A DNA stretch of 64,000 nucleotides from an uncultured delta proteobacterium (GTDB taxonomy: Bacteria; Desulfobacterota; Syntrophorhabdia; Syntrophorhabdales; WCHB1-27): assembly GCA_963810935.1 (NCBI GenBank), contig CAWEPK010000010.1:64001-128000 (forward strand), written 5' to 3'. The translations under genes and the position numbers were made by a program. The notes below the pieces were generated by a model that saw only the letters and a list, made by a program, of their open reading frames with translations, had not been told where the DNA came from and searched no databases. This document shows, one piece after another, positions 22,991-41,273 of the stretch. Every line of letters begins with the position of its first letter. The first letter of the stretch is position 1.

Positions 22991-24826
22991 ATGAAACGAA
23001 GAGCGATTTGTTTGTTTGTAAGCATAGTCATGCTCGGTTTTTTCATCGGTACCTTTCACATCCGCGCTGCACTCGCGGAAGTAACCATCGAGGTCCTCAA
23101 TCCGAGGGGCGAAGTAGATCCGGCCCCCATTATTGCCCCATCCGCCAGGGTCCCCGACCTCGTGGGAAAGAAAGTGGGCGTTTACTGGAACAACAAAGCA
23201 GGGGGAGAGCATTTCTGGGATGTAATCGAGGCAGAGCTGAAAGTTAAGATGCCGGCCTTGAAGATCGTCCGCTACAACGGCGGCTTCGAGCCAAGCGACG
23301 CGCAGATTGCAGCTATGACAAAGGAGGTGGACGCCTTTTTCTACGGCGTCGGCGATTGAGGCTCCTGCACTTGGGCCGGCGTGTCCGGATCCGTGAGGAT
23401 CGATAAAACAGGAAAACCCGTAATATACGTAGTTACCGACAATTTCATCCACGATGCCAAATCGGCCGCCGAGGATACGGGGATGCCCCGCTTGCGGATG
23501 ATCACCGTCCCGGCGGATGAATACTATAAGAGGCGTTACAGCCTGGAGGATATCAAACCGGTCGCACTGGCCGCGATTAACGGATTGATAGACGGCCTCA
23601 CGCGGCCTTTGACCGCCGAAGAGGCGAGCACGAAGCCGAAACAGGCGCAAGCTGCGGGCACGATAAAATTTACGGCCGCGACATATGCGGAAGCCCTCGA
23701 GAAATTCAACCAGGAATTCCTCGATAACCACTGGGGCAGCGGCCTTCCGCTCGTGCCTCCGACGGCCGAGCGCGTAAAATGGATGCTCGCGGGGACTACG
23801 CGCTCCCCGAACGAAGTCATCGGGACCGTCGAGCCGAAGAGAGGTAAGGCGACGATAGAGAAGATCGCGATCAATGCAGTCATGGCCGGGGCAAAACCTG
23901 AGTACCTGCCCGTGATCATCGCCGCGATGGAGGGATTGACCGACAAGAATTACGACCTGCTCCACGTCATGGCATCGACCGGCTCGTTCACGCTCCAGGT
24001 CGTCGTCGATGGGCCGATCGCGGAAGAGATAGGCATGAACTCCGGGATCGGCCTTCTCGGGTATGGCTTCCGGGCGAACAATGCGATAGGCTACGCCTTG
24101 CGGCTCTGTCTTATTAATACGGGTCTGCTTTGGCCCGCAGTGAACGACATGGCCCTCGTCGGAAGGCCTTCCTCCCATACGTTCTACGTCTTCGCGGAGA
24201 ACCAGCGGAACAATCCATGGGGGCCCTATCACGTTTCGGAAGGCTATAAAAAGGAAGAGAGCTGCGTGACCGTAATGACGGTAGGCAGCTACAGCGCCTC
24301 GTCTGCCGGGCTGGTCGCCTTCGGCGGCGGAGCGGTCTTTCCGTGGACCCCGCAGCAGCTACTCGACAACATGGTGAAAACCATTATGGTAGGGCGCAAC
24401 ATGGACACCGTCTGGAAGCTGGGCACGGCCATACCTGCCCCCCAGAAGCACTTCCTCGTGCTCCACCCCGAATTCGTCATGGAGCTTGACCGCCTCGGCT
24501 ATACACGGAAGAAGATGCAGCAATACCTTTACGGCCGGAGCCGCGTGCCTTATGAAGAGCTGAGCGCCAAGGAGGTGGCGGCCTTCAAACGCAGGCTTGC
24601 CGATAAGGAGATACCGGCCGACCGGGTGGCCGTCTTTGAGGAGTCGCTCAAGGCGGGAGGAAAAGTGCCCATGCTCCTCAGGCCGGAGGATTGCGTTATC
24701 TTCGTGGCGGGCGGCATACCGGGTTACTCCTTCGGTGATTCCTATTTCTCGATACCGCCGCACGGAACTGCCGCGTTTATGACCAGAACGATCCACGGCG
24801 CGGCCCTGACAAAGGCAGGCAAATAA
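22991..24826 (+). CDS. UGSC-motif selenoprotein with signal peptide, fused to its GLPxVPPT partner domain (611 aa, Sec123 at TGA 23357-23359)
   Basis: AGGAGG RBS; ORFs 22904-23359 and 23381-24826 are in the same frame, reading GVGD-TGA-GSCTW; downstream HWGSGLPLVPPTAERV...EKIAINAVMAG domain; hairpin 3' of the UGA. Confidence 0.85.
23373..23392 (+). promoter_or_regulatory. Putative bacterial SECIS hairpin (UGSC gene)
   Basis: GGG-CCGG-(CGTGT)-CCGG-A-TCC, starting 13 nt after the UGA, G in the second loop position. Confidence 0.55.
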
Positions 24827-24837
24827 AGCACCGGAGG

Positions 24838-25323
24838 GTGATATTGGGACCCGCAGGCGGCCGCGGAAAACTTCTTTGGCCGACGGCCGCGCTTTTCCTC
24901 TTTTCCTTGCTCTTGTTGCCGGCCCTTCGCGCATCGACCGAAGGGGCGCCCGGCTACACCGGCTGGAAAAAATGTGAGGCATGCCATTCGAAAATAGCCG
25001 CGGAATGGAAAACAACGAGACATGCGGACGCATTCGAGCACCTGAAGAAAACGGGGCAGGAGGAGTTGCCGAATTGCGTCCGCTGCCACAGTACGGGATA
25101 TGACCGGGCGGGCGGTTTTATCGACGCCGAGATTACGCCGGGACTTGCAGGGGTCCAGTGCGAGGCATGCCATGGACCGGGCAGGCAGCACGCGGTTGCT
25201 CCGGCTAAAGAGAGCATCGCCGGCGCACCGGGAATAGAGACGTGCAGGCGGTGCCACACTCCGGGTCAGGACCCGGGGTTTGACTACGGGCGGAAAGTGA
25301 AGGGAGTCCATCGGGTGCGGTAG
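24838..25323 (+). CDS. Periplasmic tetraheme cytochrome c (c554-like)
   Basis: Four CxxCH motifs (CEACH, CVRCH, CEACH, CRRCH), W-x-x-T-x-H-A, GVQCEACHGPG; hydrophobic signal segment. Confidence 0.88.
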   Translation: MILGPAGGRGKLLWPTAALFLFSLLLLPALRASTEGAPGYTGWKKCEACHSKIAAEWKTTRHADAFEHLKKTGQEELPNCVRCHSTGYDRAGGFIDAEITPGLAGVQCEACHGPGRQHAVAPAKESIAGAPGIETCRRCHTPGQDPGFDYGRKVKGVHRVR

Positions 25324-25376
25324 CGGCCCTCGGTCCAAAACCGGCTCCGAGCAATTAACAAAGGAGGACGCATCGA

Positions 25377-26132
25377 ATGATGCAGGGCAAAAAACGCATA
25401 ATGATGCTTCCGGTCGTATCGCTCCTCGCCCTCCTTGCGGCAACCGCATTTATAGCGGCGGATGCGGCAGGGGCGGCGGGCATCAGGGTCACGCCGGACC
25501 GGACCGACGCCGGCACGGTAGACGAAGGGGTAATGTTAAACACCGCCTTTACTGTCGAGAATACGGGTAATGTGCCCCTGACGATTACGAACGTTCGCAC
25601 TAACTGAGCCTGCACAACCGGTGTGCTTGGCAAGCACACGCTAAAGCCGGGAGAAAAAACCGCGCTCAAGGTCGTATTCGACACGGCGGGCAACCCCGGG
25701 CCTTTCCGCAAGACGGCGACACTCACGACGGACGTCCCCGGACAGGAGGAGGTGGAAGTCGCCGTGACCGGGATGGTCAGGGAGGCGCCGGCCGCGAAGA
25801 TACGGGTAGAGCCGCGAAGGATAAGGCCGGTCCCGGCGGGGTCTCAAGGCGGGATGAAAGGGGAATTTACAATATTCAATAATGGGAGCCTGCCCCTCGT
25901 CATAGGGCGGGTTCATTCCAAAGAAAGCGCCAGGGTCTATTTCGACAGTAAAAAGGAAGGCAGCATTGTCGTCGAGCCGGGAGGCGCGAGAAAAATAGAG
26001 ATAGTTCTGGGCGAGGACAAACAGGCGGACCGGGCCGGGCAGGAGCTTGTCGCTATCGAGTCGAACGCGAGGAACGCGCCGCAAACCGGTTATGTTATAA
26101 TTATCGAGCATGGCGATCCTTCTAAGAAATAG
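25377..26132 (+). CDS. Exported DUF1573/Ig-like protein, putative selenoprotein (251 aa, Sec77 at TGA 25605-25607)
   Basis: AAGGAGG RBS; ORFs 25377-25607 and 25623-26132 are in frame, reading FTVENTGNVPLTITNVRTN-TGA-ACTTG...LKPGEK, matching the DUF1573 N-G--PL-I--V--SCGCT...I-PG pattern with U in place of the first Cys. Confidence 0.8.
25621..25639 (+). promoter_or_regulatory. Putative bacterial SECIS hairpin (DUF1573 gene)
   Basis: Perfect 8-bp stem GTGTGCTT-(GGC)-AAGCACAC starting 13 nt after the UGA, G-first loop. Confidence 0.65.
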
Positions 26133-26148: not shown

Positions 26149-26562
26149 ATGGTCAAGACCGCATCCCTGCTTTCCGTCATTATGGTGCTTGCGCTGCTCT
26201 ACGGTGTCACGGGCCGGGCGGCGGCCCAGGAAGAGGTCCCGCGCATCACCATCGAGGAACTGAAAGGCATAATGGACCGAAAAACGGATGTGGTGATCCT
26301 CGATACCCAGCCGAAGGCCCTCTATGACAAAGAGCATATCAAGGGGGCCATATCCTTCCCGTGGAAGCGGAAAATTGCGGCGCAGGACGTACAAAGCCTG
26401 CCCCGCGACAAGCTCATTGTCACGTATTGCGACTGCGGGCCGGGGGAATCAGACTCGGCCGGTGTCGCCTCCCAGTTGCTATCCTTCGGTTTCAGCGACG
26501 TAAAGGTGCTGAAAGACCCGTCGATACGGGGATGGAAAAAGGCCGGCTATCCTGTGGAGTAG
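26149..26562 (+). CDS. Exported rhodanese-like domain protein with YCDC motif
   Basis: AAGGAGG RBS, signal peptide, VPRITIEELK, HIKGAISFP, IVTYCDCG, GWKKAGYPVE. Confidence 0.85.
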   Translation: MVKTASLLSVIMVLALLYGVTGRAAAQEEVPRITIEELKGIMDRKTDVVILDTQPKALYDKEHIKGAISFPWKRKIAAQDVQSLPRDKLIVTYCDCGPGESDSAGVASQLLSFGFSDVKVLKDPSIRGWKKAGYPVE

Positions 26563-26592
26563 CCCCCCCGAGCCGGTCGCTTGCGGCTTTTA

Positions 26593-26620
26593 TTGACAGG
26601 ACCTCGAAGAACGATGTAAT
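26593..26620 (+). promoter_or_regulatory. Putative sigma70 promoter for purL
   Basis: TTGACA (26593-26598), 16 nt spacer, TGTAAT. Confidence 0.5.
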
Positions 26621-31693: not shown

Positions 31694-31782
31694 GCCGAAG
31701 TGGTGGAACAGGCAGACGCGCCGGACTCAAAATCCGGTGGGGCTTACACCCCGTGCGGGTTCGATTCCCGTCTTCGGCACCA
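31694..31782 (+). tRNA. tRNA-Leu(CAA), island integration site
   Basis: GCCGAAG/CTTCGGC acceptor stem plus ACCA, anticodon arm CCGGA-CTCAAAA-TCCGG, long variable arm. Confidence 0.97.
31726..31780 (+). repeat. attL core (55 bp)
   Basis: CTCAAAATCCGGTGGGGCTTACACCCCGTGCGGGTTCGATTCCCGTCTTCGGCAC; matches 40623-40677 with one mismatch. Confidence 0.95.
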
Positions 31783-31817
31783 GTGATTTAGAGGACTTAC
31801 CGCTCATCCTTTTCTGC

Positions 31818-32908
31818 TTATCTGCGACTATTAATTGAAATTGTGCCCGGAATTGTGCCCACCTGCGCCTGTTCGGTAGTTTCTCGACTCTCTTCATGAA
31901 GAGCCGCAACTCGCTCACAGGCCCGCTTGAGGTCTTCCTCGTTGGTGATGTTGTACCTATCAAATACGGCCCGCGTCTTATGGCCGCTGATCTTCATGGC
32001 AACCTTTTCTGTTACCCCTGCCCTTACCATATTTCTGATCGCTGTTCTTCTAAGATCGTGGAAGAGTCTCCCTGGTATTCTCGCCCGATCACATGCATTC
32101 TCCCAGGCTTCACGCATGTCTCTTATCCGCTTTCCCTTACGAAAGAATACATATTCGCAGAGAGGATACTGGGAATCTCTTATCGTCTGCTGTCTCAGCA
32201 TCGTTTCGTATAGCTCCCCGCCCATGTAGACTATCCGTGCCTCGTCGTTCTTCGTCGTCCCTGCATCCAGGGTTACCTTCTTCTCGAAGATGTTCATCTG
32301 GTCCCACTTGAGCGATAATATCTCCTCTTTCCGCATGCCAGTGAAATACCCCATTACAAGAACGGGCCGGAGATATTCTGGCAGTTGCTCCTTCAGCTTT
32401 TCAAAATCCGCATACTCGAAATAGCCGGTTCTCACGTTGTTCTCTTTCAGCCTAGGAATATGGGGAACCTGTCCAACCTTGGCCGGGGTAGTTTGCGCCC
32501 CAAGCGTAAACATCCTCTTTAATGCTGCCAACTCTCGGTTGATAGTACCGTTTGCCGCGCCCGCCTCTTGCCTTTCAACAATGTAGTTCTTTATGCGGAA
32601 CGTGGTGATTTCGGCAACCCGGTTGCCTTTGAATTTCTTTTCAAGGTGAGCCTTCAGTTCCTCTGCCCTCTGAAGGGATTTTCGACCGTTCATCTTATAA
32701 TCGGTTATGAAATCAGCCGCGATCTCGTCGAACTTGATGCGCTCGATTTGCAGCCCCTTGAATCGCCCCTCGACTATTTCCCCTTCCCTTTCTTCAATAC
32801 TGCCTTGGCATCGGTTTCTTTCCGCGAATGACTGCTTTCCCTGTAGGGCTTGCCGTGCCGGTAATACTTAATCCAGTATGTTTTACCTCTGAGATAAATC
32901 ATTCCCAT
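31818..32908 (-). CDS. Tyrosine recombinase/integrase (frameshift near 32820)
   Basis: Catalytic R (TGMRKEE), K, HDLRR, GHKT, Y (DRYNI). The N-terminal arm-binding-like [25 protein letters not shown] (GGAGG RBS, ATG 32908) joins by adding one A at ~32820. Confidence 0.93.
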
Positions 32909-33155
32909 GGCCCTTTACCTCCTTTCTCGTTTTCGTTTCCTTCACTCCCTTCTCGGCATTCATTGCCTCAATACCCGCAAGGGCAAGACCCAGGAAAGAT
33001 GGAATCTCTCTTGTCCCGGTCTCCCAGCGAGCTACCGTCACTCTGGACACTCTCAAAGCAGCCGCAAGTTTCATTTGACTATACTTGTTCACCTCCCTCC
33101 ATAGTTTTAGGTCTTCCGGCGTCATGAATAGTAGCCAACGGCGAAGTGTTTCCAT
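32883..33155 (-). CDS. XRE-family helix-turn-helix regulator
   Basis: LKLWREVNKYSQMKLAAALRVSRVTVARWETG. Confidence 0.85.
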   Translation of the reverse strand: METLRRWLLFMTPEDLKLWREVNKYSQMKLAAALRVSRVTVARWETGTREIPSFLGLALAGIEAMNAEKGVKETKTRKEVKGHGNDLSQR

Positions 33156-33215
33156 ATCCTATCTCCTTCCTCAATATTGTAACCAGTGGCTACACTGTTG
33201 TCAACAAGAATTCTT

Positions 33216-33455
33216 TCAGAAGGTAAAGCTGGTTTTGTTCCGCTCAATATAGTCATCCATGTCTTTTACGTCGAGAAGCACACGGCGGCCGTCTCTGACT
33301 GTGATGATCTTCCCATCCCATATGATCTGCCACAAGGCGTTTACTGTCCGCCCTAAGTAATAGGCGGCTTCATGGACAGTATAGAGCCTCTTGACCGGTC
33401 CTTTCGGATTCTTCCGATCTACTTTGTACTTGTTTAGCCGCTCGGTCTTAGTCAT
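33216..33455 (-). CDS. Excisionase-like winged-HTH protein
   Basis: RLYTVHEAAYYLG...VRDGRRVLLDVKDMDDYIE; small, basic, upstream of int. Confidence 0.8.
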   Translation of the reverse strand: MTKTERLNKYKVDRKNPKGPVKRLYTVHEAAYYLGRTVNALWQIIWDGKIITVRDGRRVLLDVKDMDDYIERNKTSFTF

Positions 33456-40872: not shown

Positions 40873-41273
40873 ACTTCTGAGGAGAAACGGCTCGTCGTCG
40901 ATGACGAGGATGCGCCACTTCTCTTTGGCAATCGGCTGTGGTTTCTGCATTGCCTTCACATCCTCGTATTTACTTTATACCTTGCGGTCTCGTCTGTCTG
41001 TAACCTGCTTGCCAATTTGACAAAGATGGAACCGGCAGCATGTAGCCGGTTTAACGGAAGCCAAGATGCGACTGCCGTACGATCTATCGAAAAGAGGGCG
41101 GCTTTCACCGCGCAAGAGGAACGGGCCATGTACTTATTTCGCAGAATCGTACAGGCATGGATCGATAGTTCTTTCTTCGTTGAGCTCATCGGCCGCCACC
41201 GCTGTAGACCGGCGCGAAGGGCGTGCACATAATACAAGTATAAGGCCTATTCTGTGCTTCAGGGAGGTAAACC

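Follow-up and report, generated by a model that had tools for sequence, protein, structure and literature searches.

We found that an exported DUF1573 selenoprotein with a Sec-Ala-Cys motif is encoded side by side with, and in some of its homologues fused in frame to, a c554-like tetraheme cytochrome c, and adjacency and fusion together make it very likely that the two proteins form a working partnership. Both genes lie in a 64,000-nucleotide stretch of DNA from an uncultured delta proteobacterium, hereafter called the window. By analogy with a known heme-selenocysteine enzyme, the two may constitute a single heme-selenium redox enzyme that, outside the inner membrane, would cleave S-S (or S-Se) bonds. 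The novelty resides in the cytochrome link, which lies outside the coordinates flagged in an earlier note on this DNA (25377-26132), and not in the Sec assignment. Selenoproteins with a DUF1573 domain entered the lists in 2007 and have lacked a functional clue; an adjacent or fused partner provides a testable handle on them.

The DUF1573 gene (25377-26132, + strand) is preceded by a GGAGG ribosome-binding site (25363-25367, +) and codes for an exported protein of 251 residues, consisting of a signal peptide, a first Ig-like domain that harbours U77-A78-C79, and a second Ig-like domain. Translation of the frame confirmed what had been reported in the earlier note, namely that a TGA codon (25605-25607, +) is followed by 174 further residues in frame; 76 residues precede it, and the frame ends with TAG. 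The TGA lies in the context R-T-N-[TGA]-A-C-T, corresponding to the motif N-U-A-C-T, with Cys79 (25611-25613, +) as the second residue of the U-x-C dyad. The signal peptide was recognized by eye from the hydrophobic N-terminus and coincides with a predicted helix at residues 12-28. The read-through product matches the PF07610 profile with 89.7 bits (cut-off 26.1) over residues 38-134, which correspond to positions 3-98 of the 98-position model. We infer that the TGA at 25605 is almost certainly read through as selenocysteine. Contigs from all four public runs cover this codon, with no alternative letter; as these runs come from a single study and may include the source sample, they serve to exclude an assembly slip more than to add independent support.

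To appreciate the distribution of Sec and Cys at this site, we collected 109 loci from relatives, from genome and metagenome collections and from a phylum sample. The 73 loci that aligned over the site with at least 85 bits were considered close, and the other 36, which scored <85 bits or lacked the site, were not. Among the close loci, 64 have TGA at the position of Sec77 and nine have TGC or TGT, and TAA or TAG was found in none. Record titles of the homologues include Nitrospiraceae, Syntrophaceae and delta proteobacterium. The motif is U-A-C in 61 of the 64 TGA loci, U-S-C in two and U-A-S in one (L079); Cys79 is thus present in 63 of them and replaced by Ser in the last, and is not strictly invariant. 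The replacement of Sec by Cys (nine of the 73 loci) is found in at least two separate lineages of the tree. A search of protein representatives added only three full-length Cys homologues, the best 150 matches being mostly long, repeat-rich Ig proteins.

In the 36 distant DUF1573 loci, the column of U77 is occupied by the first Cys of a C-x-C motif in 26 cases and by TGA in one, four loci are misaligned or have a different motif, and five have no alignment over the site. This placement of U77 on the conserved Cys column was read from alignments to family members rather than from the columns of the PF07610 model. Together with the presence of TGA in many genomes, it supports the proposal of the earlier note that the protein is a U-x-C selenoprotein of the DUF1573 family. 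Three distant loci (L121, L125 and L126) place Sec in yet another, third manner, P-C-[TGA]-G, with Cys and Sec adjacent.

Thirteen nucleotides after the TGA lies a perfect 8-bp hairpin (25621-25639, +), as had been noted before, with the loop GGC beginning 21 nt after the TGA and a predicted energy of -9.1 kcal/mol. As summarised in PMC13188914, the bacterial SECIS model calls for a loop of 3-9 nt, a stem of 4-16 bp, a G in the first two loop positions, a distance of 16-37 nt from the UGA and an energy of -7.5 or lower. The hairpin agrees with this published model on every term (3 nt, 8 bp, G-G, 21 nt and -9.1 kcal/mol, respectively). In the window, four of 1746 TGA triplets, including that at 25605, are followed by such a hairpin at SECIS distance. 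By single-sequence folding, the energy alone is unremarkable (z scores of -0.04, -0.84 and -1.02 in three fold windows).

Comparison of 57 distinct TGA sequences showed that the pairing is kept in 91.4% of the 456 cells, with double changes in six of the eight pairs, one of which goes from G-C to A-U in 15 sequences. None of 500 shuffles reached the covariation score and all slid registers scored lower, with the caveat, issued by the tool itself, that relatedness among sequences can inflate such scores. The same sequences have a mean of 7.14 Watson-Crick pairs out of 8, versus 3.94 after synonymous recoding (200 rounds, maximum 4.30 pairs), and the hairpin is therefore not explained by the protein sequence. 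It decays in Cys homologues, with a mean energy of -2.6 kcal/mol in eight of them versus -8.8 kcal/mol in the TGA sequences. Elsewhere in the window, TGAs at 41018 and 62925 (+) also lie between open stretches and have hairpins of at least 7 bp downstream; no Cys/Sec motif is evident around them, and they probably belong to shadow frames.

The genome harbours selA and two selD genes, one of the latter with a TGA, with selA and selD scoring over cut-off, as well as a tRNA-Sec and two fdhA genes with TGA. In the assembly, selB (G000:C5:224279-226178, L013) is split by three frameshifts due to single-base indels. Frame-restoring indels are present at the three places in contigs of three, four and four of the four runs, respectively, the fourth run being uncovered at the first place, and selB scores over cut-off in all five relatives that have the DUF1573 gene. 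We therefore took the breaks as assembly errors, although it is solely the read contigs that contradict them, and rejected the possibility that Sec decoding has been lost. A triplication of the tRNA-Sec gene was also rejected: the three copies are located at the ends of contigs C4, C6 and C11 of G000, which are 96-98% identical and represent gap-rich overlapping copies of one locus.

The earlier note had left open whether this family is absent from selenoprotein lists. It is not, since it has been catalogued already (PMC9312934, PMC13188914, NF041425). A 'DUF1573 domain-containing protein, UGC' appears in the lists of 2022 and 2026 (PMC9312934, PMC13188914), where it is credited to PMC1976440, and OS_HP2 is found with two genes in Table 2 of that paper (Zhang and Gladyshev 2007). 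The name DUF1573 does not occur in the main text of PMC1976440; that OS_HP2 is DUF1573 rests on how the NCBIfam model (NF041425) is named. OS_HP2/DUF1573 has thus stood in selenoprotein catalogues since 2007 as a family without known function (PMC1976440, PMC9312934). The protein of the window scores 73.8 bits against NF041425 and nine relatives score 45.4-64.3 bits, all below the cut-off of 100. OS_HP2 and the proteins described here share the PF07610 domain and a Sec residue at the first position of C-x-C, but the motif is U-G-C in the best NF041425 loci with a stop, whereas U-A-C predominates here (61/64). The cytochrome was not found within 1.5 kb of any of the 25 best NF041425 loci. As judged from these sequence comparisons, the exported U-A-C branch with two Ig domains is a new subfamily of a known selenoprotein family. 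Its link with the cytochrome was not reported in the literature searched, including the available text of PMC13326102, PMC12013277 and PMC13188914; published surveys of selenoprotein neighbourhoods may hold it.

A structural model of the DUF1573 protein (pLDDT 82) comprises two Ig-like domains and places U-A-C in the loop that separates strand 68-75 from strand 80-84. Fold searches identified ASH/PapD-like proteins, with the Ig domain of VesB (Z 12.7, rmsd 1.8, 97 residues) and a Porphyromonas protein (2QSV; Z 10.6, rmsd 14.7, 204 residues) among the matches. With 10-23% identity, this likeness is restricted to the predicted fold and does not indicate a function, and fold searches together with the ESM Atlas returned generic ASH/PapD-like and DUF1573 clusters only. 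In a sequence search of solved structures, matches to dihydropyrimidinases were discarded as spurious, and 2QSV was retrieved with an E-value of only 0.034.

The DUF1573 gene is the third of four genes on the same strand separated by short gaps, which code for a UGSC selenoprotein, the tetraheme cytochrome, the DUF1573 selenoprotein and a rhodanese. All four proteins have signal-peptide-like N-termini and Cys/Sec motifs. The UGSC protein (22991-24826, +; PF24696, 90.1 bits) is exported and has an in-frame TGA (23357-23359, +) in a D-U-G-S-C context, hence a U-x-x-C motif, with its own hairpin at approximately 23373-23392. It is fused to a large partner domain of ~450 residues without Pfam match, and four other module loci (L015, L023, L024 and L025) harbour a second, separate gene that resembles this domain. 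The rhodanese (26149-26562, +; PF00581, 46.5 bits) is an exported, single-domain protein with a Y-C-D-C active-site loop (26425). It scores 72.8 bits against NF041203, under the cut-off of 115, and Y-C-D-C-G-P-G is present in 29 of 35 rhodanese matches. A hairpin followed by a T run (26575-26595, +) after the rhodanese gene resembles a terminator, a weak prediction given that the region has eight such sites versus 5.2 expected. A promoter scan gave three sites versus 1.7 expected, none of which was retained. Further downstream, a tRNA-Leu, a phage-type integrase gene (31818-32693, -) and small helix-turn-helix-like genes mark the edge of an integrated element (31694-33455).

We then analysed the genetic environments of the homologues. 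The module is patchy, being present in six of 61 relatives. When TGA loci flanked on each side by at least 1300 nt are considered, the cytochrome is found near the DUF1573 gene in 34 of 36 cases, the rhodanese in 24, UGSC in 22 and all three neighbours in 21, in varying order. The flanks of these 36 loci differ in length, which bears on the 12 loci in which no rhodanese and the 14 in which no UGSC was seen. The cytochrome is absent from two of them (L037 and L042) and from one Cys locus (L059), and none was found within the 1053 nt upstream of another locus, L095. In the whole set of 73 loci, cytochrome and DUF1573 are fused in frame in 14, encoded by separate genes in 45 and without cytochrome in 14, mostly on short contigs. 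The fusion proteins are ~380 residues long, with four CxxCH motifs and one Sec, the cytochrome part preceding the DUF1573 part. One locus of the separate type (L071) proved to be a fusion of the kind seen in L067 whose linker is frameshifted, which leaves 44 of the 45 truly separate. On a tree of 67 rows (six of the 73 loci were left out as too short or interrupted), the fused state requires three changes, at least two of which are forced by well-supported branches.

The association extends to the phylum sample. When 401 genomes of the phylum were ranked by their matches to the cytochrome, the top five (172-195 bits, versus 133.6 for the next) were also the five with the highest-scoring DUF1573 matches (154.6-326 bits, versus 118.9 for the next), and the two genes lie side by side in them. 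In the family, the same five of 22 genomes have both genes. The search profiles were built partly from these kin, and related genomes do not count as independent, but the four phylum matches had no part in the DUF1573 profile. The tie to a tetraheme cytochrome adds support to the idea, raised in the earlier note, that the CxC/UxC dyad would be redox-active rather than structural. Two groups of loci have other surroundings. In the most distant branch (L137-L140), the pair is near arylsulfotransferase genes (Pfam match in L139 and L140, the two scanned), and three of these four loci have, next to the pair, genes for a PF03601-like membrane protein and for a ~970-codon product without Pfam match (one copy of each scanned). 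In one clade of metagenome contigs (L043, L048, L049, L054, L060, L061 and L068), only the cytochrome and DUF1573(U) are present, and CheX-like and response-regulator genes come next.

The cytochrome gene of the window (24844-25323, +, from a TTG start, with an alternative GTG start at 24838) codes for an exported protein with four CxxCH heme motifs (24973, 25075, 25159 and 25243, +). It matches PF13435 with 68 bits (cut-off 20.8) and NF043010 with 55.5 bits, below the cut-off of 400. Its closest characterized matches are cytochrome c554 of Nitrosomonas (1BVB/1FT5, E-value 3.9e-18) and hemes 1-4 of OcwA (6I5B, E-value 1e-27), four-heme units in which heme 2 is described as the active site. Cytochrome c554 has 211 residues versus a ~120-residue core here, and no selenoprotein partner is mentioned for c554 or OcwA in the descriptions available to us. 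We aligned 48 cytochrome cores, chosen by their four-CxxCH pattern. All have the four motifs and three further His residues, and no conserved Met or free Cys was found across them. Four hemes sharing seven invariant His would leave one heme lacking a His as sixth ligand and hence likely open; the His count and the alignment to c554 and OcwA fit heme 2 as the one concerned. An invariant Lys and a near-invariant Tyr are candidate alternative ligands.

This arrangement recalls MccSep, a periplasmic five-heme enzyme in which a Sec residue from an Ig-like domain reaches heme 2, ligated by His and Cys, and reduces polysulfide (PMC13510729). As described there, the U325C substitution cripples the enzyme (PMC13510729). 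Like MccSep/ExtKL, as far as these are described, the proteins studied here are periplasmic, and would combine a multiheme c part, followed by a Sec-bearing part with a predicted Ig-like fold, with a heme 2 that probably has no His as sixth ligand; the order in the fusions is that of MccSep. ExtH, a rhodanese-like protein, belongs to the ExtKL operon. MccSep/ExtKL is linked to ExtH, and a rhodanese is often beside the module here. There are also differences: MccSep has five hemes versus four here, its Sec motif is G-U-P and not U-A-C, its Cys ligand comes from the heme part whereas our cytochromes have no conserved free Cys, two genes are usual here, and the Ig parts are not alignable. Cys versions exist in the DUF1573 branch (9/73), whereas the U-to-C change cripples MccSep. 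The NF040886 profile (MccSep/ExtKL) did not match the window proteins, two fusions, or the genome at an E-value of 1e-10. Profile comparison with MccSep gave a probability of 96.3% for the heme part and of 0.2% for the Sec domain, and homology of the Sec domains was accordingly not found.

We propose that the pair could act as an exported, split heme-Sec reductase, similar to MccSep in its action but not homologous to it in the Sec domain, a proposal to which we give slightly less than even chances. The Sec-Ala-Cys loop of the DUF1573 protein would dock on the neighbouring four-heme cytochrome, whose heme 2, like that of c554 and OcwA, would have no His as sixth ligand, leaving a site that the loop would fill or face. 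Cys79 would be near the iron, and Sec77 would be the nucleophile that attacks the S-S bond; for this geometry, drawn by analogy, the chances appear evenly balanced. The heme chain might then re-reduce the Se-S intermediate, and, given the MccSep analogy and the rhodanese neighbour, the substrate might be polysulfide or a persulfide bound to a protein, a part of the scheme that we put forward more tentatively. When the complex of a natural pair of the Cys type (L039) was predicted with four hemes, the score was 0.43, versus 0.00 for the best of three controls, which lends weak support without giving an interface. At least 89% of the contacts were shared between runs, with a partner pLDDT of at least 85. 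Passing scores of at most 0.60 were obtained for 18 of 157 solved complexes and for both of the mismatched pairs that passed (2 of 215), counts that apply here only roughly. An AlphaFold2 model of a fusion protein was uninformative on docking (cytochrome part pLDDT <50, pTM 0.47).

Other roles can be envisaged for the pair. The cytochrome might reduce U-A-C as part of an electron relay, the DUF1573 protein shuttling electrons in the manner of a dithiol so that, outside the membrane, the UGSC selenoenzyme or the rhodanese stays reduced. The co-occurrence of four exported-like proteins with Cys/Sec motifs in 21 of the 36 well-flanked loci, in varied order, would fit this role, as would the U-x-x-C motif and dedicated hairpin of UGSC. 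We nevertheless consider it unlikely, since the cytochrome and DUF1573 occur with neither UGSC nor rhodanese in view at 11 of the 36 loci, including four genomes with longer flanks, and the DUF1573 fold is Ig-like, not thioredoxin-like.

Rather improbable as well is a metal site, in which U-A-C would bind Cu(I) or another soft metal, either to form a heme-copper site at heme 2, of which MccA is an example, or to deliver the metal. Sec and Cys two residues apart on an exposed loop suit two-coordinate soft-metal binding, and there is a weak PCuAC match (E-value 0.017, under cut-off). The Cu(I) chaperone 3ZK0 also matches domain 2 (Z 8.6, rmsd 3.8, 105 residues), but this match ranks 45, amid generic Ig folds, and concerns the domain that lacks U-A-C. 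No copper-related gene stood out when the ORF lists of the neighbourhoods were inspected by eye (12 proteins scanned).

The strict pairing with one cytochrome might also denote a dedicated maturation factor, whose U-A-C domain would reduce the disulfides of the CxxCH motifs in its own apocytochrome or scaffold the cytochrome without a role in turnover, and ASH/PapD-like folds are often binding modules. A permanent in-frame fusion, as in 14 loci, would be odd for a transient helper, in 27 of 27 loci the closely related cytochrome domains of UshA-like proteins do without a DUF1573 match within 1.5 kb, and the genome has two general cytochrome c assembly genes, all of which makes this role quite improbable.

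Finally, the view that the protein is not a selenoprotein, the TGA being a nonsense mutation, a sequencing error or the boundary between two genes, is already largely refuted and retains next to no likelihood: gene callers do yield a product of 169 residues downstream (P0003) as well as fragments like it, indel errors are present in the assembly, where selB is frameshifted, and the hairpin energy alone is not exceptional, but TGA is found at 64 loci and TAA or TAG never, the SECIS stem has undergone compensatory changes, termination at this codon would split an Ig domain, five of the 64 loci have GCG or GTA in place of the supposed internal start, the internal GTG of the window has no ribosome-binding site, contrary to the two-gene arrangement that the earlier note had considered, and the read contigs keep the TGA while restoring the selB frame at three places.

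Returning to the split heme-Sec reductase, its broadest formulation is that of a second, independently assembled class of heme-selenocysteine enzymes, in which heme 2 of a c554-like tetraheme cytochrome would be completed in trans or in a fusion by the U-A-C loop of DUF1573, and which would reduce polysulfide or a rhodanese-bound persulfide. We regard this formulation as speculative and on balance doubtful. If the pair works as proposed, heme-Sec catalysis arose more than once, and such enzymes are hidden in genomes because gene callers cut their genes at TGA. Otherwise, what is left is an annotation that can be corrected, and a new subfamily of selenoproteins that has no model of its own.

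The next-closest cytochrome domains are mostly found at the C-terminus of UshA-like selenoproteins (NF041198). The cytochrome of the window matches this profile with 127.7 bits (cut-off 275) over model positions 399-518, thus the last 120 of its 519 positions. UshA-like proteins also have a Cys/Sec pair two residues apart, but the Sec belongs to the N-terminal UshA-like domain, the order is C-x-U, and they have no DUF1573 domain; no DUF1573 match was found within 1.5 kb of their cytochrome domains (0/27 loci). An in-frame C-x-TGA is present upstream of the cytochrome domain in 20 of the 27 loci, and this type of cytochrome domain is thus coupled to two unrelated Cys/Sec domains, each with the two residues two apart. 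The heme-Sec idea may extend to UshA-like selenoproteins. If so, given the C-x-U coupling, Cys/Sec dyads in general would draw their electrons from this cytochrome domain, and a mechanism would become available for two orphan families of selenoproteins together. In the UshA-like selenoproteins of our set (L190-L214, L184 and L185), the C-terminus is such a c554-like tetraheme domain, and most of them share its His pattern.
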